A stretch of DNA of 64,000 nucleotides. Source: Patescibacteria group bacterium (lineage in GTDB: Bacteria > Patescibacteriota > Minisyncoccia > UBA6257 > UBA9933). Below are positions 26,979 to 39,997 of this stretch, piece by piece. The notes under the pieces are model-generated. The model was not told where the DNA came from. It did not search any database and saw nothing but the letters and a program-made list of their open reading frames with translations. Position 1 is the first letter of the stretch, and each line of letters starts with the position of its first letter. The position numbers were made by a program, and so were the translations under genes. Where the stretch lies: positions 7,626 to 71,625 of the forward strand of contig JBBTPY010000006.1 of assembly GCA_038065955.1 (NCBI GenBank), written 5' to 3'.

Positions 26979-27171
26979 CCGGTTTATAAATTTAGCTTAA
27001 TGGATAAACGCATATACCCGGGCCTTTTAGAAGCATTTATAAGCAATGGCAAAATAGCTTTAGAATATGCGGCTGGAAAGGCAAAATCTGGCTAAGGTTT
27101 GTTATAGGCAATTCATGGCAATGGTGGTCGCGATGCAGTGGTAATCTTATACAATCTCATATAGTTGATAT

Positions 27172-27531
27172 ATGAGATTGGCCACAAGCGGAAACAAGCG
27201 TTATACCAACAATATGGCAAAAAGGACTACAAAAAAACTCCATTCCGATGATAGGTTCAATACTGATTTTTGGAGAGAGCAGAGGAGGAAGACATTGATT
27301 GAGAGCACAGGAGCGTCCGTGCGGCTTTCTGGTTTAAAAATTACCAACGAGGAGGTGGAAAAAATTATTGATTCTGACAAGAGTAAAAAACTGTACCAAT
27401 GCTCGGAGTGCGGCTTCCACTATGCCGAGATGGAATGGGCAGAGAAATGCGAGGCGTGGTGCCGGAAACATAAGAGTTGCAATATCGAGATCACCGCTCA
27501 TGCCGAGGAAAACAAGAAGCCGGGTAAGTAA
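27172..27531 (+). CDS. Hypothetical protein with N-terminal motif paralogous to ORF 15729 and a C-terminal zinc-ribbon
   Basis: 'TLIESTGASVRLSGLKITNEEVEKII' shared with 15729; C-terminal 'CSECGFHYAEMEWAEKCEAWCRKHKSC'. Confidence 0.4.
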   Translation: MRLATSGNKRYTNNMAKRTTKKLHSDDRFNTDFWREQRRKTLIESTGASVRLSGLKITNEEVEKIIDSDKSKKLYQCSECGFHYAEMEWAEKCEAWCRKHKSCNIEITAHAEENKKPGK

Positions 27532-27588
27532 TCCCAGCTTCTCAATCAAGTTGATAGCATTCGGCTAAATTGATATTATATAAGTACC

Positions 27589-29112
27589 ATGAAAACTATA
27601 AAATCTATTTTTATTTCGATCCTATTTATTCCTGTTTTGGCTTTTGCCCATGAGCCGGCGGCATTGCCAAATGCAGGGCTTACTCCCGAAAGCGCTTTTT
27701 ACTTTGTTGATAAACTCGGCGAAGCATTGCGCGAATTCTTCACTTTTAACCCGGAGGCAAAAGCCCATCTTCAGATTGATTTTGCCGCCGAGCGAATCGC
27801 TGAGATAAAAATTATCTTAGAGACCAAGGGCGTGAATGCCAAGGGGTTAGAGGTGGCTCAATCCCGGCTTCAGGCAAACATTGCCAAGGCCGCTGGTATT
27901 ATTGAAGGCGAAAAATCCAAAGGGAAAGACGTAAGCGAGCTCGCAAAAAGCATTAGCGATGATTTTGATGCAAACAAAGAAGCCCTCAAGCAAGCTTTCA
28001 AAGATCAAGAACGCGCTCTTGAGGCAAAAGAAGACGAGCTTAAAGCAAAAATCCGCGAGGCAAGACGGGCCGGCGATACCGCTCAAGTTGAGGCGTTGGT
28101 AAAAGAACTCGGTGAAATTAAGGCTCAAAAAGAACTCTTGGAGCTCAAAGAAGAAGAGCAGGAAGATGCCTTAGAACAAGAAGAAGAAAAGATTGAAAGG
28201 GAGATGGATAAAAAGGAAGACGCGGAAAAGGCCATAAAAGAAGTTGAAGAGGAAAAGCAGGAATTGTTAGGTATAGTGGTTATGGATGGGAGTGGAGGTG
28301 ACGACATGACAGGGATAGTGGTCATGGACGGGAGCGGAAGCGATGACCTGTCGCAAATTTTTACTAAATTTGACCGACTACTTGCCCAAGCGAAAGAACT
28401 CTTTGCCAAAGAGAATTATGTCGGGGCAAAGCAATTAGCCAAGCAGGCAGAAAAAATCCTTGACGAGGTAGAAGACGCCATTGAAGATTTAGAAGAAGCG
28501 AAAGAAGAGGAAGATGAGTTGAAAGAAGAACAAGAAGAACAAACGAAGGAGGGGGCTGAAAAAGAAGCCGAGCGTTTAGAAAATGGGCAAAGACAAAAAG
28601 AAGCCGAAAAACAGCAAGAAGAAGCCGAGGAGCAAAGTAACGAAGCAGGTGGGGCACGGATTGTAAATCCTACGGAAAATCCATCAACCAGTAGTAATCC
28701 GCCAACGGCAAAAGACACCGGTGACTATACATTTACGATCACGGGCCGTGTGACGGATAATACATACGACCCTTCGGGAATGACGGACGGTGTTCTAGCG
28801 CCCGCTGGCGTTGTCATTCGCGCCATTGGTCCTAAAACAGTTACGACACAAACACGAACTGACGGTTCCTATACTCTCTCTTTCACGAACACGCCGCTCG
28901 GCACTTATGATGTGTGCATAACTCCTCCTTCTGGATATACGACGAATCCACTCTCCATTTCGAATTCAGAGTCAGGATGCGATAATGTGGTTGTACGATT
29001 ACGCAATGATACAACCCTTGATTTCTTTTATGGTGGTGGGCGCGCATCCCACGCGACCATTTATTTCGACTTACGGCGTACGGGGTCAGCCGAAAAGCCC
29101 ATCAACTGGTAG
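27589..29112 (+). CDS. Secreted E/K-rich coiled-coil protein with internal tandem repeat and C-terminal beta-rich (carboxypeptidase-regulatory/Ig-like) domain
   Basis: Signal peptide 'MKTIKSIFISILFIPVLAFA'; long charged helical region; duplicated 'GIVVMDGSG(G/S)DD' module; Thr/Gly-rich C-terminal ~150 aa. Confidence 0.45.
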   Translation: MKTIKSIFISILFIPVLAFAHEPAALPNAGLTPESAFYFVDKLGEALREFFTFNPEAKAHLQIDFAAERIAEIKIILETKGVNAKGLEVAQSRLQANIAKAAGIIEGEKSKGKDVSELAKSISDDFDANKEALKQAFKDQERALEAKEDELKAKIREARRAGDTAQVEALVKELGEIKAQKELLELKEEEQEDALEQEEEKIEREMDKKEDAEKAIKEVEEEKQELLGIVVMDGSGGDDMTGIVVMDGSGSDDLSQIFTKFDRLLAQAKELFAKENYVGAKQLAKQAEKILDEVEDAIEDLEEAKEEEDELKEEQEEQTKEGAEKEAERLENGQRQKEAEKQQEEAEEQSNEAGGARIVNPTENPSTSSNPPTAKDTGDYTFTITGRVTDNTYDPSGMTDGVLAPAGVVIRAIGPKTVTTQTRTDGSYTLSFTNTPLGTYDVCITPPSGYTTNPLSISNSESGCDNVVVRLRNDTTLDFFYGGGRASHATIYFDLRRTGSAEKPINW

Positions 29113-29488
29113 TAACTCACTATTGATGGTCATATTACTTATGATCACGGACCACGCTTATGATGTCACGGCAATGACACTGAGCGGTAGTTTTTCTTAT
29201 TGTCATTGCGAGAAAATTTGGTAAATAATATAAATTCAAAAAGAATTTGCCGCCTCAGCCGGAGGCTGATCTGCCTCGGGCGGAAAAGAAAAACTTGTCA
29301 TGCCTGAGGCAGATCCGCCTCTGGCGGAAAATCGTTCTTTCCGCTCCGGTTCAAGGGAGCAATCCCCGCCGTTTTATAACGTGGCCCATGCCCCTGACTC
29401 GTTGAAGTCGGCACTACACGAGATACAGCTCGCAGAACACATCTTCGAAAGGAGGAAACAGGTGAACGAAAGCCGCTTCAGCAGTAAG

Positions 29489-30034
29489 ATGGTCTTCGCT
29501 CTGACTGGCATGAGTGAGTGCGGAAAAAGTACTGTTGGTAAGTATCTCGACTCCAAGGGCATCGCGCGTCTCAAGATTGTGAAGCTTTTCGAAAGAGTCC
29601 GCGACAAGTGGTCTTCCGATGAAGAACTCTACGCGTTCGTGAGACGGCAGGAGGAACGCGACCCCCATGCTTTATGGGACGCGTTCGTCGACGAGCTGGC
29701 TACGGAGATGGATCGCCTCAGCACTAATGCCGCCTCAATCGAAAGTTTGTACGGCGGCGGACTGGGTCCATACCTCAAACAAAAGCTCGATCGACACTTC
29801 TGTGTCGTATTCCTGGACATGCCCTTAGAGATTCGTCTTGTTCGCCAGATGCAACGTGAAGGCCTTTCTGATATGGATAGTGCCCGAAAGCATCTTCTGC
29901 CACGAGATAAAATCAAGGAAAAGTCGGGAATCCCGGCGCTCAAGGAAATCGCGGGCGAAGTGGTTGACAATTCTGGGACGCTCAAGGAGCTCTACCAGAA
30001 AATAGATCAACTGGTTCAGAGATATTTCCCGTAA
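29489..30034 (+). CDS. P-loop nucleotide/nucleoside kinase (dephospho-CoA kinase-like)
   Basis: 'ALTGMSECGKSTVGKYL' Walker A near the N-terminus; C-terminal 'VVDNSGTLKELYQKI' resembles CoaE-type ends. Start taken at the internal Met; ORF track extends to 29300 through a hairpin-rich region. Confidence 0.5.
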   Translation: MVFALTGMSECGKSTVGKYLDSKGIARLKIVKLFERVRDKWSSDEELYAFVRRQEERDPHALWDAFVDELATEMDRLSTNAASIESLYGGGLGPYLKQKLDRHFCVVFLDMPLEIRLVRQMQREGLSDMDSARKHLLPRDKIKEKSGIPALKEIAGEVVDNSGTLKELYQKIDQLVQRYFP

Positions 30035-30103
30035 CCCAAGCGGCTCTTTCGAAAGATAGAGCCGCTTTTTCCAATCCACGCTAAAAACCGCTATAATACA
30101 ACT

Positions 30104-31495
30104 ATGAAATTTGACGAAAACGATCAAATTGAATATTTGCCAAACGGCATAAAACATGAATCTGCTGGAGGTTTTGTGTTTTTTGAAGATGACAAAACTC
30201 ACGAGTTGTTTGTAGCTTTATTACGTAAACCAGACGGACACTATCTCATCCCAAAAGGCCACGTCAGAAAAGGTGAAGAAACAAAGGATGCGGCTGTAAG
30301 AGAAGTTATGGAGGAACTTATTCTAAAAGAAAACCCTGAGATTATTTCTTTTCTCAAAATTGATAGTTACACATTTACTCTTGACGATAGCAATGTCACT
30401 CATCATAAAAATGTCCATGTCTACGTTTTTCGGCTTAATAAAAAAGCTGACATTAAGCCTCAAATTGACGAAGGATTTGAGGCTGCGGAATGGATTCCAT
30501 TTGAAAAAGCCGTTGAAAAAATTTCATTTGATAGAGAAAACCTCCTTAAAGCACGACAGTGTTTCTACTACAACAAACCAGTAAAAGCTTTTAAAGACCT
30601 AACAGATATAAAATCCCTGACTATCGCAATTTCCACCCACAACGGTGAATTTACGATATCAAAAACCCTTAAATCGTTAACTGAAAATCTACAAGAGATT
30701 GGAGATTTTTTAAAAAAGGAAGTATTAGTATGCGCAGATCATTGTACCGACAACACCATTTCGGTTGTAGATAATTTTATAAAAAGTAACAAGTTGGACG
30801 ATATACAATTTCATCTGATAAGCAACGACAATGCGAAAGGAAAATCAAACGCTCTGAATAAAATTTTTTCTGCTTCGTCCGGAGAGCTTTTTTGTGCGGT
30901 TGATGATGACGTTATTCTTAAAGAAAAAAGCTTAATTAATCTCATGAGAGCTTTGGTTGAAGAAGAAAGTTTGAGGTGTGTCTTTTCGGCGTGGAAAAGA
31001 TTACCATTTCAAAGCAAAAATCCTTGGAAACTATTTTGGCACTGGATTTTAGGAATTAAATTCGAGGTTAACGAAACAAGCGAAATAATGAGAGGAGCTA
31101 CTATGATGCTGAGAAGAGATAATTTTGTTTATTTGCCAGCAGTGCTTAACGAAGACCAATTCTTGCAATATATGTACTGGCCGCAAACAAAGGAGGTTAA
31201 AGACTCCGTGATTTACTTTAACTCTGTCAGCAGTATTTCTGATTATTATAGAAGATTTATCCGTATAATGGTCGGCTCTAAGCAACTGTCAAAATATCTT
31301 GCTAAGAATAGAATTGATGAATGTTCTAGAGCTCTTTTTCAAAAACTGGAATACCACAGAATCTTGCGCCTGCCTTGGAAGTTAAAGGGTCCTTTTCTGT
31401 TTTACAGATTTATTCGGTTTTGTATAAGTTTGTATGTTAACCTTAAGATTAAATTCATAGACGATTATGAATGGTTTCGATTCAAACAAAATTAA
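30104..31495 (+). CDS. Fusion protein: N-terminal NUDIX hydrolase plus C-terminal family-2 glycosyltransferase
   Basis: Nudix box 'GHVRKGEETKDAAVREVMEELIL'; GT2-A region 'VCADHCTDNT...CAVDDDVIL' with DxD. Confidence 0.55.
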   Translation: MKFDENDQIEYLPNGIKHESAGGFVFFEDDKTHELFVALLRKPDGHYLIPKGHVRKGEETKDAAVREVMEELILKENPEIISFLKIDSYTFTLDDSNVTHHKNVHVYVFRLNKKADIKPQIDEGFEAAEWIPFEKAVEKISFDRENLLKARQCFYYNKPVKAFKDLTDIKSLTIAISTHNGEFTISKTLKSLTENLQEIGDFLKKEVLVCADHCTDNTISVVDNFIKSNKLDDIQFHLISNDNAKGKSNALNKIFSASSGELFCAVDDDVILKEKSLINLMRALVEEESLRCVFSAWKRLPFQSKNPWKLFWHWILGIKFEVNETSEIMRGATMMLRRDNFVYLPAVLNEDQFLQYMYWPQTKEVKDSVIYFNSVSSISDYYRRFIRIMVGSKQLSKYLAKNRIDECSRALFQKLEYHRILRLPWKLKGPFLFYRFIRFCISLYVNLKIKFIDDYEWFRFKQN

Positions 31496-31862
31496 ATTGA
31501 GCATTAGTGACGCATTGCTTGATGCTCTTCAAGAAAATCTTGCGGCTATAATTCTAGCCGGTAGTTTTCCAGATTCATTCAAAGAAGGGTGGAGCGATGT
31601 TGATCTGTTGATTGTAGTCCATAAAATGGATCTTGATACAAAATTAAAATTAACCCATGTGATTGTAAAGCTGGAACATAACACAAAGACACACCACGGC
31701 ATAAATGTAATAACTGAAGAAGAATTTTTAACTCCAAAATCCCCAGAAACTTTACTTGAGGGTAAAACACTTCAGGCTCTTATTGACTTAAAAAAATATC
31801 CTGAAAGAGTTATTTACATTCACAAAACGATTAATCCCGAAAAGGTCTATTCTCCATGTTGA
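31467..31862 (+). CDS. Minimal nucleotidyltransferase (Pol-beta superfamily, MNT-like)
   Basis: 'AGSFPDSFKEGWSDVDLLIVV' fits the G[SG]...D.D nucleotidyltransferase motif. Confidence 0.55.
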   Translation: MNGFDSNKIKLSISDALLDALQENLAAIILAGSFPDSFKEGWSDVDLLIVVHKMDLDTKLKLTHVIVKLEHNTKTHHGINVITEEEFLTPKSPETLLEGKTLQALIDLKKYPERVIYIHKTINPEKVYSPC

Positions 31863-31959
31863 CCACATAAAAGCATGGGCAAATGGTGGGGAGACTATTT
31901 TAGAAAATTTACAAACGCTTTGTTCAAAGTGTAATATTGGTAAAAGCGATTTAGAATAA
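31858..31959 (+). pseudogene. Remnant of an HNH endonuclease (C-terminal half only)
   Basis: In frame +1 relative to the nucleotidyltransferase. Translates 'VDHIKAWANGGETILENLQTLCSKCNIGKSDLE*', the second half of an HNH motif (DH..., N..., CxxCN). Upstream CxxC and first His are absent. Confidence 0.5.
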
Positions 31960-31961
31960 TT

Positions 31962-32285
31962 ATGGAAACTAAAAATGTAAAATTCGTTGTTTTTGTTCCT
32001 CTCTCTCACGCTGATGCTGTGCGCCATGCTCTCGGCGAGGCCGGAGCGGGTAAAATCGGAAATTATGATTTCTGCTCGTTTTCTTCTCGTGGCACAGGTC
32101 GTTTTCGTGGAAATGAAAAAGCGAATCCTGTAATTGGTAAAGCGGGGAAATATGAAGCAGTCGAGGAAGAAAAAATTGAGGCGATTGTGCCGCGAGAAAT
32201 TTTGAAAGAGGTTATTGAAAAAGTAAAAAGCGTTCATCCATACGAGGAAGTCGCTTTTGATATTTATCCGTTGGAAACAATATGA
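31962..32285 (+). CDS. Small PII/CutA-like (ferredoxin-like fold) protein, function unknown
   Basis: 107 aa; 'GAGKIGNY', 'SRGTGRFRG' and C-terminal 'HPYEEVAFDIYPLE' resemble CutA/PII-like families. Weak assignment. Confidence 0.3.
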   Translation: METKNVKFVVFVPLSHADAVRHALGEAGAGKIGNYDFCSFSSRGTGRFRGNEKANPVIGKAGKYEAVEEEKIEAIVPREILKEVIEKVKSVHPYEEVAFDIYPLETI

Positions 32286-32911
32286 AAATTACAAAAAATA
32301 AAATTCAAGTACTATTAGTCCATGGTGGAATGACCTTCAAAAATGAGAAGGATTATTTACACTACTTAAAAACTAAAAAAGTAACGACAACGAAAAAAGT
32401 TTCTTGGACAGGAGGTTATTTAGAGAAAAGTTTAGGCAAAAGGTTTGAAATAATCTCGCCAAGAATGCCTTTGCAGGATTTTGCGAAGTACAGAGATTGG
32501 AAGATATTTTTTGAGAGATACTTATCACTTATCAAAAATAAATACATTTTGATTGGTTCGTCTTTAGGCGGAGTTTTCCTTGCAAAATATCTTTCCGAAA
32601 ATAAACTTCGCAAAAAGGCATTGTCGGTATATTTGGTTTGTCCACCTTTTGACAATACATTGCCAGGTGAAGATTTGGTCGGTGGCTTCACGCTCGGCAA
32701 TAATCTGTCGTTGATTGAGAAGAACTGCAAAAATCTCCATTTGTTATTTTCAAACGATGACGATGTTGTGCCCGCCGCTCATGCCGATAAATACAAGCGA
32801 AAATTGAAAAATGCCCATGTTGTGATTTACAAGAGCAAAGGCGGGCATTTCAACATCGCCAAATTTCCTGAAATAGTTAAGATGATTTTTGCAGATATTA
32901 AAAGAAACTAG
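32282..32911 (+). CDS. Alpha/beta-fold serine hydrolase (YdeN/RBBP9-like)
   Basis: 'VLLVHGG' N-terminal strand; nucleophile elbow 'IGSSLGG'; late 'GGHFN' His region. Confidence 0.5.
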   Translation: MKITKNKIQVLLVHGGMTFKNEKDYLHYLKTKKVTTTKKVSWTGGYLEKSLGKRFEIISPRMPLQDFAKYRDWKIFFERYLSLIKNKYILIGSSLGGVFLAKYLSENKLRKKALSVYLVCPPFDNTLPGEDLVGGFTLGNNLSLIEKNCKNLHLLFSNDDDVVPAAHADKYKRKLKNAHVVIYKSKGGHFNIAKFPEIVKMIFADIKRN

Positions 32912-33010
32912 CCGCCAATTTTTTCAAAAAAGAAAGCCGAAGCCCGTGCGGATTCCTCCCCAAACCCCTCCTCCGCGCGGGCGAGTCCGAATTCCGCACC
33001 CCGCCACCAT
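32909..33010. repeat. Partial copy (R orientation) of the GC-rich intergenic repeat family; begins at the stop codon of the upstream gene
   Basis: 'tagccgccaatttt...gcggattcctccccaaacccctcctccgcgcgggcg' aligns with 36676-36760. Confidence 0.6.
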
Positions 33011-33340
33011 TCCCCCAGAAAAATGAGGCGGGGTGCGGTCAGAGTTTCTTCTCGAAAAAAGTTCGAGCAAATGCTAAAATAACACCACATTAGACGATTT
33101 CTTTCGCCCTCGCCCCTCGCTTCGCTCGGGGCTCGGGCTTCGGCGGGCAGAAAATAAAGGTAATTCCACGGCTTTTTGAAGTCAACAAAAAGCCGTTGGT
33201 CAAAAATTCGGCGGTTCGAGCCGATTTTTTTGAGAAAATTTTTCATCTCTGAAAAATTATCCTCCAAAGCGAAATTTTTGGCTTGGTTGGCTTCAATTAT
33301 CCAGTTCCGGACGAGTTCGAGCCAATGATTGCCTTTTCGC

Positions 33341-34591
33341 TCAAAATCGCTTTTTTTCCTCAATATCTTTTTTCCCCGACATCAGATCGTTTTTCTTTGG
33401 CTGAAACTCCGGCAGTTCTAAATCGCCTTCAAGGTAAGCGTCCATCAGGCGATTTATTTTTGTCTTAATTTTTTCTAATTCTGTTTTAAGATTTTGAGCG
33501 AAAAGGTCAGATGAGTGGCGGGATTCTTTATTCTCATTTTCCAGTTTTGTCAAAAACTTTTCCCGCCACTCATCGGGCAAAGAAACTTTTTGACAAAGAT
33601 TTTTCACTTGTTCAGTTAAAACTTCTTCCCGCAAAAAGCGATTTTCAGTACACGAAATAGTTTTGCTCTTGTGGGTGCAACGATAATAAATAAATTTCAA
33701 ACCACTTTTCTTGATGTGTCGCTCGGCGGTTATGGCATATCCACATACCCCACAAGTAGCAAAACCTAAAAACTGAAAATTCTTTGGTCCTCGCTTTTTG
33801 CGGGGCTTCCCATTCTGAACAAGTGCATTTTGAATTTGGTCAAAAAGTTTCTTTGCAATCATTGGCTTATGCGAACCTTGATGCACCTCGCCACGATATT
33901 GAAAGTGTCCGTAGTAAAAAGGATTTTTCAAAATATGTTCAATACTGGCGAGGTGCAAAGGTTTACCTGTTTTGCCAACCAAGCCAAGAGAAAACATTTT
34001 GCGTTGAATAGCCGTGAGTGTGTATTGCCCCGAAGCAAAAGCCCCTAACGCTTCTTTTACTTTGCCAAAAGTTTTTCTATCCGGCTCAATCGTCCGCAAA
34101 CGAGGTTCGTTGAAATATCCTAAAGGGGCTTTTGCGGAAAGTTCACCACGGCGTATTTTTTGGCGAATACCACGCAAAATGTTTTCTCTTAAATTGTCGG
34201 TGTAATACTTTGCTTGTCCGAAGGCGACACTCAACATAAATTTTCCTTGCGGTGTCGCCTCGAACCAGAAAGTAGGGAATTTTAGCGCAACAATCTTTTG
34301 CGTATCCACCAAATAAATTACTCTGCCACCGTCTATGCTATTTCTCGCTAAACGGTCTGGATTCCACGCTAAAATTCCCTGTGCAGTGCCTTTTTCAATT
34401 TCGCCAAGCATTTCGTTGAAAACTACTCTACCCGGCTCTTTGGCGGTCTTGCTCTCGTAAAATTCTTTTTCAACGAAAAGATTATTTTGCTTGGCGAATT
34501 CCCGAAGCTCCGTCAATTGTGCCTCAATACTTAAAACTTGGCGTTCTTCGTCTTCACTTGATTTTCTACAATAGATAAAATATTTGATCAT
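33341..34591 (-). CDS. Large serine recombinase (resolvase/invertase catalytic domain, recombinase domain, zinc ribbon)
   Basis: N-terminal 'YCRKSSEDEERQVLSIEAQ' contains the catalytic Ser. C-terminal 'CGVCGYAITAERHIKKSGLKFIYYRCTHK' is the zinc ribbon of large serine recombinases. Confidence 0.85.
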   Translation of the reverse strand: MIKYFIYCRKSSEDEERQVLSIEAQLTELREFAKQNNLFVEKEFYESKTAKEPGRVVFNEMLGEIEKGTAQGILAWNPDRLARNSIDGGRVIYLVDTQKIVALKFPTFWFEATPQGKFMLSVAFGQAKYYTDNLRENILRGIRQKIRRGELSAKAPLGYFNEPRLRTIEPDRKTFGKVKEALGAFASGQYTLTAIQRKMFSLGLVGKTGKPLHLASIEHILKNPFYYGHFQYRGEVHQGSHKPMIAKKLFDQIQNALVQNGKPRKKRGPKNFQFLGFATCGVCGYAITAERHIKKSGLKFIYYRCTHKSKTISCTENRFLREEVLTEQVKNLCQKVSLPDEWREKFLTKLENENKESRHSSDLFAQNLKTELEKIKTKINRLMDAYLEGDLELPEFQPKKNDLMSGKKDIEEKKRF

Positions 34592-34799
34592 AGCTTCGGG
34601 AATTAAATTGATAAAGGCATTGCACTTACACCGACAATTTCTAAAAATCTCTCCTCATCGGCTCTTGCGCCTTTGGCGCAATCCAAACTTTGTTTGGGAA
34701 CCGCCGACTTTCGGCGGGAATTCTTTTGGCGGAATTCAAAACCCCCTGGAATTTCTTGGCGGAAACCAATGCCGAGGGGCGAAGCCCCGAGGCAACTTC

Positions 34800-35020
34800 T
34801 TCGGCAAATCAAATTTGGTGGTGTTTGTTTAAAAAAGTCAGAACCCATTTTGCAGAAAATCCCAACGAATGAAACGGAAACAATGCGGACTCGGCAGGGC
34901 AAACTATTTTTCTGGGGTTTTGGATTTGCCCTGCCTCGGCTGATTTCCCGCCCGCAGGAGGGGTCTGGGGAGGAATGCGGGCGGGTTTCGGACTGGGGGT
35001 TTTCGGAAATTCGGCGGCTA
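34800..35020. repeat. Left copy (L orientation) of a ~200-bp inverted repeat flanking the XRE-NDT-HD cassette
   Basis: Reverse complement of 34837-35020 aligns nearly base-for-base with 36676-36870. Contains a perfect 10-bp hairpin stem cccgcccgca/tgcgggcggg. Confidence 0.8.
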
Positions 35021-35101
35021 TAAAATAATTGAATAATTCTCTCATATTTGTTATTATAATACTGTCAGTTAAAACAAGCAACAGTATTATGTTATCAATA
35101 T

Positions 35102-35305
35102 ATGGAAACTAATTTATTAGGACAGAAAATAAAGAAGCTACGGACAAAACTTGGTCTTTCTCAAGACGATTTTGCTCGCAAGGCGGATGTTCCCTACACA
35201 ACGCTTACAAAGGTCGAAACAGGCGTTATAAAAAAACCTTCGGTTTTTATGGTGAGCAAAATCGCTAAAGCGCTTGATGTTAATATTGAAGAATTAATAA
35301 AATAA
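35102..35305 (+). CDS. XRE-family helix-turn-helix transcriptional regulator
   Basis: 'LGLSQDDFARKADVPYTTLTKVETG' HTH_3 pattern; 67 aa. Confidence 0.6.
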   Translation: METNLLGQKIKKLRTKLGLSQDDFARKADVPYTTLTKVETGVIKKPSVFMVSKIAKALDVNIEELIK

Positions 35306-35310
35306 ATATT

Positions 35311-35697
35311 ATGAAAACAGTAGTACTTTGCGGCAGTCGCCGTTTCAAACCGGAAATGAGAGAATTTGGCAAAAAGCTAAAAGAGCTTGGTGTCGTTGTG
35401 TTTGAACCTTATTTACATTCCGGTCAAGACGAATGGGCGAAACTGTCGGACGACTATAAAAAATTTGTTGCTCTCGGACTAACCCATGATCATTTTTACA
35501 AAATACAAATAGCTGATGTGGTTTTTATTTTTAATAAAGACGGTTACACTGGGAATAGTACGACTTTGGAAATCGGTTATGCGGTAGCGACAGGAAAACC
35601 AATTTATGCGTTAACAAGTGACGAAGAATTATGCCGCCATGTTTTATTTAGAGAGATAATTTCTTCACCCAAAGAACTTGTTAAAAAATTGAAATAA
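35311..35697 (+). CDS. Nucleoside 2-deoxyribosyltransferase-like (Rcl/DNPH1-type Rossmann) protein
   Basis: 'VVLCGSRRF' N-terminal strand and 'GYTGNSTTLEIGYAVATGKPIYAL' match the NDT-like 'G.S.GT..E.G.A.A.GKP' signature. Confidence 0.45.
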   Translation: MKTVVLCGSRRFKPEMREFGKKLKELGVVVFEPYLHSGQDEWAKLSDDYKKFVALGLTHDHFYKIQIADVVFIFNKDGYTGNSTTLEIGYAVATGKPIYALTSDEELCRHVLFREIISSPKELVKKLK

Positions 35698-35700
35698 ATT

Positions 35701-36678
35701 ATGAAATACACAGATAGAGTATATGGAAATTTTGAAATTACAGAACCAGTAATTTTGGAATTGATAAATTCCTCAACTTTTCAAAGATTAAAGGAAATAG
35801 ATCAAGCTGGATATTTCGAACCACATTTCCCAGGCACTGCACATTCGCGTTTTGAACATTCAATCGGTGACTATTTACTTTTGAAAATGTATGAGGCACC
35901 AATTGAAGAACAAATTGCTGGTCTTATTCATGATGTTTCTCACTCGGCATTTTCTCATTGTATAGATTATGTCTTAGATGCTGGCTCTGAAAAAGAACAT
36001 AATCATCAAGATAATGTTTTTGATGATTATGTTAGAAAATCAGAAATACCAGAAATTCTTAAAAAATATAATCTCGATTTGGATTATATCCTTGACGATA
36101 AAAATTTTCCTCTTAAAGAAAACGATTTGCCAGATTTATGTTCAGATAGAATAGATTATTCATTAAGAACAGCTACTGTTTTTAAGGAAATAGAAAACGG
36201 AAAATTTTTTATTTATAATCTCACAGCAAAAGACGGAAGGTGGATTTTTAAAGATTTTGAAAGTGCAAAAAAATATGCAGACTTATTTTTGAAACTCAAC
36301 ACTAACTATTATGCGGGATTACCTTCCGCTGTTATGTTCCGAACGGTTGGAGATTATTTGCGATATGCACTTTCAAAAGAATATATTTCTGAAACCGATT
36401 TATACACAACTGATAAAATTGTTCTTTCAAAAATAGAATTTCATATCACCGACGACTCAAAATTGAAATTGCTTTTTGAAAGAATGAATAATAAAATCGG
36501 TTTCAGAAATGACCCAGTTAATTATGACGGAAAAGTATTTTGTAAATCACGAGTGGTTGATCCTCTTTGTTGGCATAATGGGGAAATAAAAAGAGTTTCA
36601 GAAATAGAGCCGAGTTGGTCTGATATAATTACGCGGGAATCAAAACCAAAAGAATATTTTTTAAAATTTGATAGATAG
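35701..36678 (+). CDS. HD-superfamily metal-dependent phosphohydrolase
   Basis: 'HSRFEHSIGDYLL' (His) and 'LIHDVSHSAFSH' (HD) motifs. Confidence 0.7.
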   Translation: MKYTDRVYGNFEITEPVILELINSSTFQRLKEIDQAGYFEPHFPGTAHSRFEHSIGDYLLLKMYEAPIEEQIAGLIHDVSHSAFSHCIDYVLDAGSEKEHNHQDNVFDDYVRKSEIPEILKKYNLDLDYILDDKNFPLKENDLPDLCSDRIDYSLRTATVFKEIENGKFFIYNLTAKDGRWIFKDFESAKKYADLFLKLNTNYYAGLPSAVMFRTVGDYLRYALSKEYISETDLYTTDKIVLSKIEFHITDDSKLKLLFERMNNKIGFRNDPVNYDGKVFCKSRVVDPLCWHNGEIKRVSEIEPSWSDIITRESKPKEYFLKFDR

Positions 36679-36995
36679 CCGCCGAATTTCCGAAAACCCC
36701 CAGTCCGAAACCCGCCCGCATTCCTCCCCAGACCCCTCCTGCGGGCGGGAAATCAGCCGAGGCAGGGCGAATCCATATCCCCAGTCAAATGTTTCGCCCT
36801 GCCGAGTCCGCATTAGTTTTCAGGGTTCTCCGCAAAATGGGTTCTAACTTTTTCCAACAAACACCAAAATCAAGCCCCTTGATTTTGGGATATTCTAAAC
36901 TTTGCGCGAAATCATTTTGAGGGAAACTAGCCCGCCTCCGCTTCGCTCCGGCGGAACGCTCGGGCATTTCGGCGAAAAATTTTTGCGACTGACAA
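36676..36995. repeat. Right copy (R orientation) of the inverted repeat; starts at the HD-gene stop codon and extends ~320 bp
   Basis: 'tagccgccgaatttccgaaaacccccagtccgaaacccgcccgcattcctccccagacccctcctgcgggcggg...' is the reverse complement of 34837-35020. Its distal part (36900-36995) is mirrored at 39042-39130. Confidence 0.8.
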
Positions 36996-37069
36996 AATAG
37001 GTATTACTTCTATCTTATCATAATATCTAAACTTTGGATATTGATTTCTTGGATATATCTTGTTAATAT

Positions 37070-37291
37070 ATGGTTAAGTCAATCCAAACAAAGGAATATG
37101 CCTATTTTATTGAGCGGTTACGGAAGGCTCGACTAAGGGCTGGTCTGACACAGGCGCAGGTCGCGAAAAAGATAGGTCGCCCCCAATCGCATATATCAAA
37201 TGTTGAATCTGGACAGCAAATGGTTGATGTAGTCGAGCTTCAACGATTTGCAAAGATATACGGAAAAGATATTAACTTTTTCCTAAAATGA
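37070..37291 (+). CDS. XRE-family HTH regulator
   Basis: 'AGLTQAQVAKKIGRPQSHISNVESGQ' HTH_3 pattern; 73 aa. Confidence 0.6.
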   Translation: MVKSIQTKEYAYFIERLRKARLRAGLTQAQVAKKIGRPQSHISNVESGQQMVDVVELQRFAKIYGKDINFFLK

Positions 37292-37620
37292 AATCTGCCA
37301 AACTTATTTCAGTTTTACTTTCCTTTGTGATTATTGTTAGTGTATTCGGTGTTTTTGCTGCTCCCAACACAACAGAGGCGTTTGTCCAAAAATATGAATA
37401 TTCAGAATATGATCCGCCTGGTGTTTTCTCTGGAGTTTGGCATGGACTTCTTGCGCCATACTCGCTTGTTGCCCGTTGGTTTATGGACGACGGAGCGATG
37501 TACGCAGTACCGAATACTGGTTGGTTTTATGACGCAGGATTTTTGATTGGTATAGTCGGCTCGATTCCTATTGGTTGGGCTGCTGCTATAATTTCCACAA
37601 TTGGACATATCTTGTCTTAA
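37288..37620 (+). CDS. Small membrane protein, unknown
   Basis: N-terminal TM or signal segment plus C-terminal hydrophobic segment; start overlaps the upstream stop. Confidence 0.3.
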   Translation: MKSAKLISVLLSFVIIVSVFGVFAAPNTTEAFVQKYEYSEYDPPGVFSGVWHGLLAPYSLVARWFMDDGAMYAVPNTGWFYDAGFLIGIVGSIPIGWAAAIISTIGHILS

Positions 37621-37632
37621 TTTCTAAAACTT

Positions 37633-38115
37633 ATGAAAATTAAACTTATAATTGGAATTCTCGTCGTGCTGGTTTTAATCTTTGGTTGGATAGCTTTTTC
37701 TCCAGCTACTCAAGAATCGTCAGTCAAGAAAGCACATTTTGCTACAAAATTATCAGCATCAGGAAGTATCACCTGTACTTATCCTCAAATACTGCATGCC
37801 AGCTATCAATCCGGAGAAATAACGCATGAATTACCGAAGCCGGAGACAAACCCTATCATAATGACTTTTAGCGATATTGATTCTGAAGTTGCAAAAGTTA
37901 AGTTCATTGATGCAACGCAATCCATTTCAGAAGTTCCACTCGTGAAAGTTATTGATACAGTAGAAAAGTTGATGTTCCTCGAAGGAAACGGTGAGCCCTA
38001 TATAACTGTTCATACAATTTATAAGGAAGATGGCGTTGCAACCTATGAAAAATCAATGTCGCTATTAGGTATCCCAGTAGGTACGGTGGGAATGGGTAGT
38101 TGTGTCGATTATTGA
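37633..38115 (+). CDS. Secreted hypothetical protein
   Basis: Signal-peptide-like N-terminus 'MKIKLIIGILVVLVLIFGWIAFS'; no recognisable motif. Confidence 0.3.
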   Translation: MKIKLIIGILVVLVLIFGWIAFSPATQESSVKKAHFATKLSASGSITCTYPQILHASYQSGEITHELPKPETNPIIMTFSDIDSEVAKVKFIDATQSISEVPLVKVIDTVEKLMFLEGNGEPYITVHTIYKEDGVATYEKSMSLLGIPVGTVGMGSCVDY

Positions 38116-38180
38116 AGGATAAACCCACTACGTAGCTTTAACTTGTTCTTCATCGTCATATTTAGTATTATATAAGTGAT

Positions 38181-38672
38181 ATGTCCTTACACCGAAAAAA
38201 GTACCAAAATGCTGTTTTGTACTTATGCCGGAAGCTAAAAGGCGAGGTACGCGGCAAGAAAAAATTAGCGAAATTGCTTTATTTCGCGGATTTTGATTTG
38301 TACGAAAAAAGTCAGAAATCAATAACTGGCGATGTTTACTGTGCGCTCCCAATGGGGCCGGTTCCGGCAGCTTTGGAAGAAATCACAGCTGAAATGACAA
38401 AAAAGAAAATGCTTGGCGTTGAGCACATCGAAGAACGAGAGGGATACAATCCTACTGAAGTATATAAGTGTCTCATCGAACCCGATCTTTCTGTTTTTGA
38501 TGACGAAGAAAAGAAAATGCTCGATCGGATTGTTGTCAAATATGGTCATCTCAATGGCAAACAATTAGAAGAATTATCTCACGCCGAAGCACCATACATC
38601 GGTACGGAGTTACGAAAAGAAATTCCATACGAACTGGCTTTTTATCGTGGTACAGATTTTAGTGAAATATGA
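38181..38672 (+). CDS. Panacea (DUF4065) domain antitoxin-like protein
   Basis: 'LAKLLYFADFDLYEKSQKSITGDVYCALPMGPVPAAL' matches the Panacea core and is paralogous to the 25636 C-terminal domain. Confidence 0.55.
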   Translation: MSLHRKKYQNAVLYLCRKLKGEVRGKKKLAKLLYFADFDLYEKSQKSITGDVYCALPMGPVPAALEEITAEMTKKKMLGVEHIEEREGYNPTEVYKCLIEPDLSVFDDEEKKMLDRIVVKYGHLNGKQLEELSHAEAPYIGTELRKEIPYELAFYRGTDFSEI

Positions 38673-39040
38673 TTCAGTTTCTGTACCACGACGGCATTCA
38701 GAAAGAAATCGCCGCCCTTGATGAGCGGCGATTTCGTACTATACGCAGTGGTCTGTCTGCATTTGAGAGACTGTGTGAGGTGCAATTTAATCCGACAAAT
38801 CCGCGACAAATCATTGCGCCGGCTAAAATACACCGCATTACGCAGAATGATATTTGGACACTCTGGAAAACTGAACTCGTTGTACCTAATTCGGGTTTAC
38901 GCCCAAATCAATGGCCGCGAATGTGGTTTGTGGTGAAGGGCGCAATTATTGCTTTTTTGTGCATATCCTCTCATGTTGATAATTACAACGATGAGGATAT
39001 GAATCGTTTAGCTTTGTCGCGGGTGTCGGATTTCTTCTGA
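38669..39040 (+). CDS. Putative toxin partner of the Panacea protein (family unrecognised)
   Basis: Start overlaps the Panacea stop (ATGA coupling); 123 aa; C-terminal hydrophobic stretch. Confidence 0.3.
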   Translation: MIQFLYHDGIQKEIAALDERRFRTIRSGLSAFERLCEVQFNPTNPRQIIAPAKIHRITQNDIWTLWKTELVVPNSGLRPNQWPRMWFVVKGAIIAFLCISSHVDNYNDEDMNRLALSRVSDFF

Positions 39041-39041
39041 A

Positions 39042-39130
39042 ATGTCGCAAAAATTTTTCACCGAAATGCCCGAGCGTTCTGCTAGAGCGAAGTGGAGGCG
39101 GTTTAGTTCCTTTTTTGAATTTTTTAGGAG
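39042..39130. repeat. Partial L-orientation copy of the intergenic repeat family
   Basis: 'gtcgcaaaaatttttcaccgaaatgcccgagcgttctgctagagcgaagtggaggcgg' is ~90% identical to the reverse complement of 36921-36990. Confidence 0.7.
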
Positions 39131-39292
39131 GCGCGCAAAAGAAAATTGTAAGGGAAAATTTCTGCGAGGTTGTCGCCTGAGCGAAGCGGGAGCGTACGAT
39201 TTAGTCTCGCTTCACCACGCGCTCCGCGCGCGGCACATCAGTCGGGGTTCTACTGGAAGTAAGTCCGAATTTTTTGGTATAATGATTACCAT

Positions 39293-39997
39293 ATGAATTT
39301 GCCAAATCATGTCGTTGTAATTCCCGATGGTAATAGGCGGTGGGCGAGAAAAAAGGGGTCGCTTTATTTTTTTGGCCATCGCGAAGGCGCGAAAACGACG
39401 GAAAAAATTTTAAAAGCCGCTTTAGAGATGAAAATTTATCATCTCACTTTTTGGGGCAGCAGTTTGGATAATATTATCAAGAGACCCAAAAAAGAGGTTG
39501 AATTTTTATTTGATATTTTTGAAAAGAATTTTAAAAAATTGGTTAAAAATAAAGATATTCATAAAAATGGCGTTAAAGTGAACGCGCTTGGCAGATGGAG
39601 AGAGTTATTTCCGGAACGCGTTAAAAAAGCCATTGAAGAGGCGATTGAAAAAACAAAAAATTATAAAAATTACCATCTGACGTTTTTAATGGCTTATAGC
39701 GGTATTGATGAGATGACAAACGCAATCCAAGAGATTGCTAAAATCAGAAATCAGAAATCAGAAATCAAAATCGACGGAGATTTAATTAAAGAAAATCTTT
39801 GGACAAAAGATTTGCCGCCTGTTGATTTGGTTATTCGCACCGGCGGCGAACCGCATTGGTCGGCGGGAATGATGATGTGGGACGTGGCCGACGCCCAATT
39901 ATATTTTACCGAAACGCTTTATCCCGATTTTTCCGTGGAGGAATTCAAAAAAGCCGTTGAAAAATATCAAGAAACGGAAAGAAGATTAGGCAAATAA
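39293..39997 (+). CDS. uppS: Undecaprenyl diphosphate synthase
   Basis: 'HVVVIPDGNRRWARKKG' and 'IRTGGEPHWSAGMMMWDVADAQLYFT' cis-prenyltransferase motifs. Confidence 0.9.
   Translation: MNLPNHVVVIPDGNRRWARKKGSLYFFGHREGAKTTEKILKAALEMKIYHLTFWGSSLDNIIKRPKKEVEFLFDIFEKNFKKLVKNKDIHKNGVKVNALGRWRELFPERVKKAIEEAIEKTKNYKNYHLTFLMAYSGIDEMTNAIQEIAKIRNQKSEIKIDGDLIKENLWTKDLPPVDLVIRTGGEPHWSAGMMMWDVADAQLYFTETLYPDFSVEEFKKAVEKYQETERRLGK

Follow-up and report, generated by a model that had tools for sequence, protein, structure and literature searches.

Island and gene content

The window, which is the whole 64-kb stretch of DNA analysed here, comes from a Patescibacteria genome and contains a 23.8-kb island at 15457-39289, bordered by the 3′ end of a tRNA-Ala(GGC) gene and by uppS. 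The tRNA gene was located with ARAGORN at 15385-15456 on the + strand and ends in ..GGTCC-AC, with the AC at 15455-15456 forming the left island junction (attL side). uppS was assigned with Pfam (39293-39997, +) and is the first core gene to the right of the island. The bounds were set with the related genome L213, in which the site is empty: the orthologous tRNA-Ala(GGC) abuts uppS, its end ..GGTCC-AC-CGG is followed directly by the uppS ATG, and the downstream synteny is the same (uppS-MTase-tsaD, kept in L213 and L210). The tip of the rightmost repeat copy, D, is therefore the right junction. This junction reads ..GATT-AC-CAT before the ATG in the window and ..ATATCCC-AC-CATA before the ATG in L211, and the AC lies on the same strand at tRNA-Ala and at D.

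A gene for a large serine recombinase (LSR) and two cargo modules were identified in the part of the island that bears repeats, and the gene annotations given to the modules in the first-pass annotation were confirmed with Pfam. Cargo module 2 (35023-36675, +) begins with a promoter/operator region, followed by genes for an XRE protein (35102-35305), a nucleoside 2-deoxyribosyltransferase-like protein (35311-35697) and an HD-domain protein (35701-36678), all on the + strand. The XRE protein matches restriction-modification control proteins, and the module recurs in L023 at 91% nucleotide identity. Cargo module 3 (37070-39040, +) comprises an XRE gene (37070-37291), small ORFs at 37288-37620 and 37633-38115, a Panacea-domain antitoxin gene (38181-38672) and its partner (38669-39040), all on the + strand. 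The Panacea pair was also found in L058, with 89% and 84% amino acid identity, beside a different arm of the repeat element described below.

Module order was compared among relatives, as the first-pass annotation had suggested. The tRNA-Ala/uppS locus is empty in L213 and holds other cassettes in L211; the cassette set that L211 and L212 carry at this same site is a different one, 8.6 kb long, with remnants of LSR and T arms. In L023 the LSR gene and module 2 sit directly at tRNA-Ala.

Composite repeat arms

All repeats in the window are parts of one composite element, termed E. The inner edge of an E arm starts with TAG, and this often doubles as the stop codon for the final cargo gene. The arm contains at least two GC-rich perfect palindromes, with C/G mirror repeats as their loops, and has an outer tip mimicking the 3′ end of a tRNA. 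The tip resembles a tRNA T-loop and acceptor end and terminates in ..CC-AC. The repeats noted first, from 32909 onward, occupy the right-hand third of the island, and BLAST detected no E copies elsewhere in the 64-kb window.

Copy A, a short form at 32909-33088 (+), was defined by pairwise alignment, its hairpins and the family HMM. Its start had been placed correctly in the first pass, but the copy extends to about 33088 and not to 33010. The TAG of the inner edge (32909-32911) is the stop codon of a hydrolase gene. Hairpin hp1 lies at 32943-32981 (loop 32952-32972) and hp2 at 32994-33038. The tRNA-like tip, ..GTTCGAGCAAATGCTAAAATAACACC, is a weak match to the tip HMM (E = 0.24) and is followed by the core AC at 33087-33088. 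An A-type arm also adjoins an LSR unit in L180.

Copies B (34820-35022, -) and C (36676-36866, +) are short forms identified by alignment and the family HMM, with tip HMM E values of 5e-16 and 3e-14, respectively. Copy B consists of a tip (34820-34869), hp2 (34895-34936), hp1 (34947-34985) and an inner edge CTA, or TAG on the - strand, at 35020-35022. In copy C the TAG at 36676-36678 is the stop codon of the HD gene, and hp1 (36711-36749), hp2 (36761-36803) and the tip (36819-36866) follow. Both + copies thus start at the stop codon of the upstream gene, as first reported, and this TAG is present in copy B too. Beyond the tip of copy C the core is degenerate (CC-AA) and lacks AC; this and the weak tip match of copy A count against the integration model given below.

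The interval 36676-36995, initially taken as a single copy, comprises copy C and, back to back with it, C′ (36925-36989, -), which belongs to a different family module. C′ is an inverted fragment of the long-form middle/3′ module and is the left arm of module 3. It was identified through its inverted match to 39044-39108 (65 nt, 89%, E = 5e-16) and also matches, at 95%, positions 9916-9995 of L211, just upstream of uppS in that genome.

Copy D (39044-39289, +) is a 5′-truncated long-form arm, defined by nhmmer (E = 1e-26), the tip HMM and junction comparison with L213 and L211. It consists of the paralogue of C′ (39044-39108) and the long-form 3′ half (39107-39287), which includes CACCACGCGCTCCGCGC at 39213. 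The fourth copy had been assigned the opposite orientation; the family HMM places 39107-39288 on the + strand as the long-form 3′ half (E = 1e-26), with the tip match at 39238-39283. The tip, at 39238-39287, carries TGGTATAAT, and the core AC at 39288-39289 is the right junction (attR). The ATG of uppS begins 9 nt past a -10-like TATAAT in this tip.

Copies B and C were aligned in inverted orientation at 94% over 140 nt (34882-35021 and 36675-36814; 202 nt at 87% with BLAST, E = 5e-56). Copy A has its first 74 nt in common with B and C, at 76% (BLAST, E = 1e-9). Its hp1 and hp2 are the same as those of B and C, with conserved loops and compensating stem changes. The four copies reported at first are accordingly real and related as parts of E, but they are not one uniform family. 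The order in the window is A(+), LSR, B(-), module 2, C(+), C′(-), module 3, D(+); this replaces the strict alternation of the first pass, and every module is still enclosed by inverted copies.

The recombinase gene and its inverted repeat

The LSR gene (33341-34591, -) was assigned by Pfam and translation and encodes 416 amino acids with Resolvase, Recombinase and zinc-ribbon domains and the catalytic motif YCRKSSEDE. Its relatives in the PDB are SPbeta SprA/YokA and the A118 integrase, and sub-threshold NCBIfam matches were obtained to XisF, then to CcrB/CcrA. Judged by its sequence, the protein is a canonical LSR integrase.

The gene is flanked by inverted T arms. The left T arm (33089-33230, +), the ATTAGACG.. 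allele, was located through a weak inverted match to 34698-34755, and a terminator scan marks its inner end, TCGGCGGTTCGAGCCGA at 33208-33224, as a terminator-like hairpin. The same allele begins the T arms of L174 and L181 and the 5′-side arm of L157 and L182. The right T arm (34695-34819, -), the AATTTGATTTGCC.. allele, is 99% identical in inverted orientation to the sequence after tRNA-Ala in L023. Its core is GT on the + strand (34818-34819), and the arm and the tip of copy B make up an intact inverted attP-like site, S2.

At other loci the LSR-flanking inverted repeats are 120-173 bp long and 95-100% identical, with a tRNA 3′ end at one outer edge and an E tip at the other. The recombinase had been described as a plain first module of the array. 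Instead, the gene sits in its own inverted repeat of ~125 bp between tRNA-like sites, with an E tip at one edge and either a tRNA 3′ end or a second E tip at the opposite edge, and the LSR is likely the driver of the cassette array.

Occurrence in genomes and metagenomes

The 21-mer of the hp1 loop was found in more than 118 genome loci, mostly in Patescibacteria, with 29 different 9-bp stems among 98 distinct copies; the invariance of the loop is partly an artefact, since the loop itself was the search query and arms found by way of the LSR show variant or flipped loops. In an alignment of 48 hp1 sequences 9/9 stem pairs vary on both sides, and 88% of cells are paired, compared with 60% in shuffles (0/500 shuffles reached the observed value).

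Pairs of arms, - on the left and + on the right, were found 1.4-6.9 kb apart in 18 loci and in the opposite arrangement in 1 locus only. The cargo starts with a small XRE-type HTH gene (65-73 aa) beside one arm in 11 of the 18, and continues with variable genes, apparent restriction-modification genes among them. LSR homologues were present in 29 of the loci found by the loop motif alone, almost always downstream of the arm in its sense direction. These 18 further loci, the linkage to LSR and the differing content of the tRNA-Ala/uppS locus among relatives agree with the first-pass reading of a modular array made by recombination, and not of random repeats.

A metagenome scan returned at least 498 relatives. 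Among the 46 metagenome loci with enough flank to be counted, 40 have a tRNA on the strand opposite to LSR, with its end 256-478 nt beyond the LSR stop codon (256-267 nt in 36); these tRNAs are 34 Ala, 4 Val, 1 Ser and 1 Arg. In 3 metagenome loci an E tip-AC-T junction takes the place of the tRNA, as at copy A in the window. An XRE gene is divergent from LSR at 390-790 nt in 21/42 loci. No paper was matched to the arm/integrase design, which is widespread in Patescibacteria (CPR) and apparently undescribed so far.

Proposed integration model and alternatives

The probable explanation is that small gene cassettes are stacked by a serine integrase at the end of a tRNA gene, and that the repeats are their non-coding arms. 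The LSR part of a unit would consist, in order, of a tRNA 3′ end or tRNA-like tip, AC, a T arm, the LSR gene, the inverted T arm, AC and the tip of E(-). The cargo part would follow with E(-), a promoter, XRE, the cargo genes, E(+), its tip, AC and the host flank. The LSR would recombine attP (E tip-AC-T) with attB (tRNA-AC-flank), with crossover at or near AC, a position suggested solely by the point where sequence identity changes. The tRNA end would be retained at the junction, giving attL at the tRNA and attR at the E(+) tip. With E tips that mimic the tRNA end, a cassette once integrated may serve as a further docking site, so that units would pile up side by side. Outward-pointing arms always bracket the cargo, which gives the repeats their alternating pattern. 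The -10-like box in the tip probably transcribes the outside neighbour, LSR on one side and uppS on the other. If the model is true, excision would leave junctions tRNA-AC-CATATGAAT or tip-AC-T circles. Neither excised circles nor attP junctions were seen, and direct terminal overlaps occurred in no contig.

Several observations count against this model. The island segment 15457-33088, adjoining the tRNA, has no LSR of its own, and the left arm of module 3 is only the 65-bp fragment C′. The standard integrase reaction is attP x attB only, and integration at an attR-like tip would be non-standard. Structured arms are not known to be required by serine integrases. At tRNA-Ser elements the core would be GC, which is palindromic, and this counts against crossover at AC. 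The model leaves unexplained both S2, as an inverted attP-like copy between LSR and cargo, and the near-perfect 125-bp inverted repeat.

An invertible-DNA switch or shufflon, in which the LSR acts as an invertase on inverted sites and flips segments to alter expression, is unlikely. Inverted recombinase-type sites do enclose the LSR gene and each cargo module, the LSR-flanking sites have near-identical inner and differing outer halves like hix around hin, and many contigs end at these inverted repeats, with L139 folding back on itself perfectly. Orientation is nevertheless constant in consensus assemblies: the 3′ end of LSR points toward the tRNA in 40/40 tRNA-bearing loci, and XRE is always LSR-proximal and divergent, in 7/7 paired loci plus 21 further loci. 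The protein is of the integrase type, with zinc ribbon and coiled coil, and not a small Hin/Gin-type invertase, and the empty site of L213 indicates insertion rather than inversion. The shuffling raised in the first-pass annotation fits poorly with gene orientations that are constant over dozens of loci, and the evidence favours serial site-specific integration at the tRNA 3′ end.

Selfish intergenic repeats of the REP/MITE/BIME type, which spread by themselves, accumulate between operons and have no part in module movement, are quite unlikely given the strict (-,+) pairing around XRE-led cargo (18 to 1), the tight linkage to LSR and tRNA ends, and an arm tip that is the exact island boundary set by the empty site. 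No RAYT or transposase gene is associated with the copies and the remaining 58 kb of the window has no further copy, although GC-rich perfect palindromes in an AT-rich genome, mosaic and truncated BIME-like copies in alternating orientation, and many solo copies across genomes would suit such repeats.

The arms could also be structured non-coding RNAs, as 3′ UTRs or sRNAs whose C-rich loops (CCUCC, anti-Shine-Dalgarno-like) regulate translation or RNA stability. Strong stem covariation with conserved loops, long forms that make a long-range helix around three hairpins, predicted folds more stable than shuffles (z = -2.7 to -4.7) and + copies starting right at stop codons are consistent with this. 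The stems, however, are almost all Watson-Crick (986 such pairs in hp2, with 4 G-U and 4 A-C), giving no strand bias, and other subfamilies have the hp1 loop reversed (G-rich) with respect to the remainder of the arm. Arms flank both sides of cargo whatever the direction of transcription and Rfam gave no match to them, even at E <= 5, so that an RNA role appears very improbable.

Just as doubtful is module exchange by homology or an Xer-type system (cf. pdif), with the arms as flanks for cargo swap after DNA uptake or by a host recombinase and the LSR as a passenger: the Panacea pair lies beside different arms in L058, similar arms surround different cargos, arms within a pair are 94-100% identical, suggesting gene conversion, and the inverted sites alternate as in pdif module arrays, but LSR linkage is far too consistent for a passenger, a precise core is common to junctions at tRNA ends and no Xer sites were identified.

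Comparison with known systems

The proposed serial LSR integration at a tRNA gene was compared with four known systems. Tycheposons of Prochlorococcus and other marine bacteria carry cargo and enter tRNA genes of streamlined genomes by site-specific integration. When one tRNA is targeted again and again, earlier insertions are displaced inward and islands grow, with tRNA-like remnants at the borders between modules. The integrase is terminal and inward-facing, and in a minority, 27/937, it is a large serine recombinase (Hackl et al., bioRxiv 10.1101/2020.12.28.424599). The present system shares the tRNA-targeted cargo elements, islands from repeated integration, tRNA-like border remnants and an inward-facing end integrase. 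It differs in that the recombinase is an LSR throughout the clade, the host is Patescibacteria, and the tRNA-like pieces are degenerate mimics inside a conserved structured arm. Inverted pairs of these pieces, rather than direct partial-tRNA repeats, enclose the cargo. A perfect inverted repeat of ~125 bp surrounds the LSR gene itself, a replication module is absent, and an XRE regulator leads the cargo.

In staphylococcal cassette chromosome (SCC) elements and composite islands, cassettes enter a conserved gene at its 3′ end by means of large serine recombinases. Every insertion regenerates the integration-site sequence, which leads to tandem stacking; some stacked cassettes lack a recombinase, and termini have inverted repeats. 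LSR-driven insertion at a gene 3′ end, stacked cassettes, some without recombinase, and inverted repeats are common to both, and CcrA/B are the best-scoring named relatives of the LSR after XisF. The target here is a tRNA 3′ end and not rlmH, the units are much smaller (3-8 kb) and the arms are 200-420 bp structured palindromic elements. The LSR scores 88 bits against Ccr models with a cut-off of 900 bits and is thus not a Ccr orthologue.

The pdif modules of Acinetobacter plasmids, often toxin-antitoxin or resistance modules, lie between inverted recombination sites with orientation alternating along the array, and pdif are 28-bp XerC/XerD sites for host tyrosine recombinases. Modules bracketed by inverted sites in alternating orientation are the likeness; here composite arms are linked to a tRNA target and to a serine integrase that the element itself encodes. 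Integron arrays hold promoterless, compact cassettes at one platform, with toxin-antitoxin and restriction-modification cargo common in chromosomal arrays, and their sites fold as imperfect palindromes starting at or overlapping the stop codon of the cassette gene. Stacked compact cassettes, palindromic sites beginning at a stop codon and the same types of cargo are found here, without an IntI tyrosine integrase or R″/R′ core motifs. The arms occur in inverted pairs and not as one direct attC per cassette, and have variable stems and conserved loops, the reverse of attC. The present system is best read as a variant of tRNA-targeting cassette islands not described before.

Repeat copies in the window

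The intergenic repeats reported in the first-pass annotation are real. Segments 34882-35021 and 36675-36814 were found to be inverted copies over 140 nt with 94% identity, and these two copies (B and C) gave an inverted BLAST match of 202 nt with 87% identity and E = 5e-56. Copy A was recognised from segment 32909-32981, with 74 nt common to B and C (76%, E = 1e-9). A further inverted pair of 65 nt was formed by 36925-36989 and 39044-39108 (89%, E = 5e-16); because these two segments represent another stretch of sequence, what were first described as four copies are not copies of one uniform unit. No further copy was matched by BLAST elsewhere in the 64-kb window. The alternation of orientation was retained for A, B and C and revised for the fourth copy, which is + and not L, giving the order A(+), recombinase, B(-), module 2, C(+), C'(-), module 3, D(+). 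When searched with an HMM of the long-form repeat, 39107-39288 matched the 3' half of that form on the + strand (E = 1e-26), so D is a + copy, and 36925-36989 is the back-to-back inverted fragment C'. Both copies already assigned to the + strand begin, as annotated, at the TAG stop codon of the gene before them. The gene calls were borne out by Pfam-type domain matches: the large serine recombinase (LSR, 416 aa) at 33341-34591 on the - strand, the XRE, NDT-like and HD genes of module 2 at 35102-36678, the XRE gene and Panacea pair of module 3 at 37070-39040, and uppS starting at 39293. The copies are referred to below as E arms; a complete arm runs from a TAG inner edge through two or more palindromes, hp1 and hp2 among them, to an outer tip that mimics a tRNA 3' end.

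Island limits and junctions

The window carries a tRNA-Ala(GGC) gene at 15385-15456. The related locus L213 has an empty site, ..CCCCATAGGTCC-AC-CGG|ATGAATTC, with a UppS 82% identical and the same uppS-MTase-tsaD synteny, which identifies 15457-39289 of the window as an inserted island. Relative to L213 the insertion is precise and 23.8 kb long, and its junctions share a short core. Loci L211 and L212 have the same flanks (UppS 78%) around a different 8.6-kb cassette set. Its cassettes are an XRE together with an unknown gene, a fusion of LexA/S24 and methylase, and an N6-MTase paired with a Pab1-type REase; both loci also retain the remnant of an LSR, and a tip immediately precedes uppS. Module content at the tRNA-Ala/uppS site is therefore not invariant among relatives. 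Several units stand at one tRNA in the window and in L211. In the related MAG L023 (86-91% identity to the window) tRNA-Ala(GGC) is directly followed by T arm, LSR, T arm, B, module 2 and C, T arms being the inverted repeat around the LSR gene. The D-uppS junction of L210 (99.4% identity) is the same as that of the window, and L058 has the module 3 Panacea pair again, beside a different, full arm.

The left part of the island, 17.6 kb between tRNA-Ala and A (15457-32908), contains accessory genes: a type III R-M system with Mod at 16221-18113 and Res, with a TnsA-like C-terminal end, at 18118-20961; two large proteins without a Pfam match at 21082-24839; an HTH-Panacea fusion at 25636-26418; and, within the same interval, a MarR-like regulator, a DUF5667 protein, a kinase-like protein, a NUDIX-GT2 fusion and a minimal nucleotidyltransferase. 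No recombinase or E arm was found before A in 15457-32908.

All junctions follow the pattern [tRNA end or tip ..CC]-AC-[T arm or host flank]. The left edge of the island at tRNA-Ala reads GGTCC-AC-TGTATG (AC at 15455-15456), the A tip ACACC-AC-ATTAGACG (AC at 33087-33088), the B tip, on the - strand, ACACC-AC-CAAATTTG (AC at 34818-34819) and the D tip at the right edge GATT-AC-CATATG (AC at 39288-39289). The L213 empty site reads GGTCC-AC-CGGATG and the right junction of L211, before uppS, ..CCC-AC-CATA|ATG. At the tRNA and D junctions the AC lies on the same strand, as expected of attL and attR if attP is tip-AC-T arm and attB is tRNA-AC-flank. The B|T junction (S2) is then an intact attP-like copy in inverted orientation. 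A weak dyad symmetry, CAAA..N10..TTTG, was read by eye around B, centred on AC; the crossover derived from it is a consistent AC for tRNA-Ala-type sites and does not account for S2. In L211 no LSR unit separates the tRNA from the inverted tip that it adjoins, so this unit can be absent from an otherwise similar layout. A pdif-like or homology-driven exchange between modules may contribute to the swapping of cargo, but it leaves the tRNA-core junctions unexplained.

Recombinase and tRNA linkage

The LSR scored above cut-off for PF00239 (70.9 bits), PF07508 (38.4 bits) and PF13408 (33.3 bits), with the catalytic motif YCRKSSEDE at residues 7-15, and aligned over its full length to SPbeta SprA/YokA and in its C-terminal part to A118 integrase. 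Judged by its sequence, it is a canonical serine integrase, in which a catalytic resolvase domain at the N terminus, bearing the nucleophilic serine, precedes a recombinase domain, a zinc ribbon and a coiled coil. The gene-position index held no exact record of it. Homologues with 43-86% amino acid identity were found by tblastn in 29 loci that had been retrieved with the loop motif only (one more match was weak and partial), nearly all of them downstream of the arm and in its sense direction. The LSR gene lies between T arms of 120-173 bp with 95-100% identity, ~1.4 kb apart. Many LSR contigs are only 1.8-2.0 kb long and consist of the LSR and its repeats, so these repeats break assemblies. 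No contig with a direct terminal overlap, as for a circular form, was found.

A metagenome scan with the window LSR returned at least 498 relatives. Among the best 80 of these, 46 loci have sufficient flanking sequence, and in 40 of the 46 a tRNA lies on the opposite strand, its end 256-478 nt beyond the LSR stop codon (256-267 nt in 36 of the 40); the partners are 34 Ala, 4 Val, 1 Ser and 1 Arg. On the tRNA side, the final 6 nt of the tRNA form the outer edge of the T arm (...gGTTCGAntccnnnnnggt|CCACCA), and on the other side of the unit stands a conserved mimic, ...aaaatgaGTTCTGActttttccaacaaaca|CCACCA, which is the E-arm tip. The tips resemble the T-loop and acceptor end of a tRNA, and in L145, L180 and L185 an E tip takes the place of the tRNA, as A does in the window. 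An XRE gene is divergent from the LSR, 390-790 nt away, in 21/42 loci.

This site geometry would fit an invertible switch of the Hin/Gin type, in which the recombinase flips a segment between inverted sites. In consensus assemblies, however, only one orientation was seen, of LSR relative to tRNA in 40/40 loci and relative to XRE in 28 loci, and the empty site shows insertion.

Two loci are unusual in layout. The 7017-bp contig L139 (Ga0208953_1002965) is perfectly palindromic, in the order tRNA-Ile, tRNA-Ala, LSR(-), E(-), cargo, E(+), LSR(+), tRNA-Ala(-), tRNA-Ile(-), its first and last 400 nt being 100% inverted copies; it probably arose when the assembly folded back through the E inverted repeat, and calls for caution with CPR MAG assemblies. 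In L133 (149-2023) two real tRNA-Ala genes, inverted relative to each other (149-222 + and 1950-2023 -), flank the LSR unit; the outer parts of the two T arms differ, and a full tRNA gene stands where the tRNA-mimic tip would be.

Arm structure

A, B (- strand) and C have in common the edge TAGCCGCC(G)AATTT, hp1 as a 9-bp GC stem around the loop ATTCCTCCCCARACCCCTCCT, and hp2 with the loop ..CCAnnnCCCCAGnnAAAT. Between A and C the hairpin loops are kept while the stems differ with compensating changes, so BLAST understates their relatedness. The long form in other genomes is ~420 nt and has three modules: a 5' module carrying hp1 and hp2, a middle module with a long-range helix around three hairpins, and a 3' module, ..GAGCGTACGATTTAG..CACCACGCGCTCCGCGC.., with the conserved tip at its end. 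A, B and C of the window are short forms, made up of the 5' module and the tip.

As global MAFFT alignment of whole arms was too gappy past hp1, anchored analyses and HMMs were used instead. In an alignment of 48 sequences all nine hp1 stem pairs change on both sides; 88.4% of cells were paired against 60.5% in shuffles, and the covariation score was 0.567 against 0.139, with 0/500 shuffles as high. The hp2 stem pairs comprise 986 Watson-Crick, 4 G-U and 4 A-C pairs, without strand bias. Arms found independently through the LSR carry variant hp1 loops (TTCCTTCCCCCCAACCCCCTTCC), and in some of them the loop, compared with the remainder of the arm, is flipped into its G-rich complement. Other subfamilies, at L130 4590-4660, L135 4430-4560 and L149 9560-9640, were seen with a flipped loop (AAGGGGGGTGTGGGGGGAATT) or the variant mirror repeat (TTCCTTCCCCCCAACCCCCTTCC).

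Covarying stems would also be produced by a structured RNA. This reading is disfavoured by the near absence of wobble pairs, by the lack of strand bias in the G-U and A-C counts and by the flipped loops; flippable loops and almost purely Watson-Crick stems favour a feature that acts at the DNA level. The conserved property of hp1 seems to be a C/G-tract mirror repeat within a perfect palindrome, which suggests a potential for H-DNA, i-motif or G-quadruplex formation. In a promoter and terminator scan there was no enrichment over shuffles, and hp1 and hp2 are not classical terminators.

Distribution of the arm family

A search of GTDB genomes for the hp1 loop 21-mer found it in >118 stretches, the great majority from Patescibacteria and spread over many classes; contig ends are a frequent location. 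The same loop lies within 29 different 9-bp stems (98 distinct copies), an invariance partly produced by searching with the loop itself. Rfam 15 gave no relevant match for the window region at E <= 5 or for four long-form loci at E <= 1, and the loop sequence was not found in the full-text literature searched.

Eleven loop-motif matches in viral contigs all have T at the variable position, in conserved sequence without the flanking stem or E-arm features, and appear unrelated. Matches in Alistipes/Tidjanibacter belong to a different hairpin (CCCCTCCTTTGACAAAGGAGGGG) and were excluded from the family. The exact 21-mer also occurs in Rikenellaceae MAGs of these genera (L002, L007, L042, L043, L102) in the context ..TAC ATTCCTCCCCAAACCCCTCCT TTGACAAAGGAGGGG.., and this is apparently another conserved hairpin, with no relation to the CPR arms.

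Autonomous repeats of the REP/MITE kind, dispersed on their own account, do not fit, given the tight linkage of the arms to LSR, tRNA and XRE and the coincidence of the tip with the island boundary.

Cargo between arms

Arm pairs with the - copy on the left and the + copy on the right, 1.4-6.9 kb apart, were found in 18 genome loci; the exceptions were one reversed locus and one with two - copies. The near-identity of paired arms extends from the inner edge, ~45-54 nt ahead of the hp1 loop, as far as the tip. No target-site duplication was found at the outer ends of arm pairs, and a DDE-type transposon with TIRs was dropped for this reason.

In 11/18 paired loci the cargo opens with a small XRE-type HTH gene (65-73 aa) beside one inner edge and reading inward. 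The genes that follow vary, with apparent type II methyltransferases and restriction enzymes among them. The window XREs match R-M control proteins; besides these matches, PADLOC matched modules 2 and 3 to no known defence system. Neither these modules nor the paired loci examined contain replication genes (primase, helicase). In 61/112 arm copies the end of an ORF (60 codons or more) lies no further than 110 nt from the loop, and ~13 of those 61 have a stop codon immediately adjoining GCC(C)GCC, an arrangement also seen in the window.

In L027 (213-7092), a Saccharibacteria contig, an E-arm pair brackets DGR-like cargo with two reverse-transcriptase-like genes and a four-helix-bundle, Avd-like gene, recognised by eye from N-terminal sequences.

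An inverted repeat (ATACTGT..N15..ACAGTAT, 35062-35098), lying between arm B's inner edge and the start of the XRE gene, was read by eye as a likely operator. A good sigma-70-like promoter, TTGCTT-N17-TATAAT, also read by eye, lies on the opposite strand to it and is aimed into arm B, toward the LSR. In L023 (1950-1960 against window 34918-35175) a deletion has taken out hp1 of arm B together with the XRE promoter and the initial ~23 XRE codons; the L023 NDT and HD proteins are still 93-97% identical to those of the window.

Proposed mechanism

The LSR would insert a unit at the 3' end of tRNA-Ala, leaving the tRNA intact, and the outer tip of the E(+) arm would turn into attR. Since the tips mimic the end of a tRNA, additional units could dock beside resident ones as well as at the tRNA, and the array would grow. 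On excision attB would read tRNA-Ala ..GGTCC-AC-CATATGAATTTGCC, and attP of the circle would be the D or C tip joined through AC to the T arm.

The tips carry a -10-like box, which in D is an extended -10 (TGGTATAAT) 9 nt before the uppS ATG (39276-39295). At the L213 empty site uppS starts 3 nt (CGG) past the AC at the 3' end of tRNA-Ala. These two positions suggest that the arm probably restores transcription of the displaced uppS, and that uppS may be expressed as a leaderless mRNA from the island-supplied promoter. The opposite tip probably drives the LSR. The palindromes may serve as insulators, or as factor-binding or cruciform sites.

Taken together, we consider it possible, if somewhat doubtful, that Patescibacteria carry a self-extending serine-integrase cassette platform, a functional 'integron analogue'. 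Every cargo cassette would lie between structured arms with tRNA-3'-end-mimic tips; each insertion would renew the docking site and give the displaced host gene an outward promoter; defence, TA and metabolic cassettes would stack and swap at tRNA genes; and the GC-rich palindromes would act at the DNA level, through cruciforms or factor binding, in the recombination or insulation machinery.

Significance and comparison with known systems

CPR/Patescibacteria genomes are tiny, yet horizontal transfer has been credited with up to ~13% of genome length (PMC12455944). The literature searched yielded no mobile-element system for the building of CPR/Patescibacteria islands, and full-text literature on CPR, serine recombinases and inverted repeats gave no description of such elements. 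The locus represents a concrete and widespread vehicle, with at least 498 integrase-clade relatives in metagenomes and arms in >118 genome loci across many CPR classes, in which compact LSR units bring XRE-controlled cassettes (R-M, toxin-antitoxin and others) to tRNA genes. Such units would explain the formation of defence islands in CPR episymbionts and, through their inverted repeats, many contig breaks in CPR MAGs. For genome engineering, where such enzymes are sought, they also offer a large natural collection of small serine integrases (~416 aa) whose att sites at tRNA-Ala can be read.

The combination of inverted structured arms, tRNA-mimic tips, an LSR with its own inverted repeat and an XRE-led cargo operon was not found in Rfam or the literature searched, and tRNA-mimic tips with conserved-loop palindromes matched no described element. 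Integron attC sites are in direct orientation with conserved R''/R' cores, whereas the arms described here form inverted pairs in which the stems vary and the loops are conserved; no tyrosine integrase (IntI) is present among the genes annotated at 15.7-44 kb. SCC composite islands are alike in working, but use the recombinases CcrA/CcrB/CcrC and target rlmH, where the target here is a tRNA. The window LSR scored 87.9 bits against NCBIfam CcrB, far under the cut-off of 900, which places it outside the SCC family. Tycheposons share site-specific tRNA integration, tandem accretion and tRNA-derived border repeats, all found here. The recombinase is an LSR and not a tyrosine recombinase of the tycheposon lineage, and the hallmark replication genes shared by tycheposons were not found in modules 2 and 3 or in the paired loci examined; on these grounds the cassette islands are not of the tycheposon family, though similar in working. 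We class the system with the tRNA-targeting integrative cassette islands.
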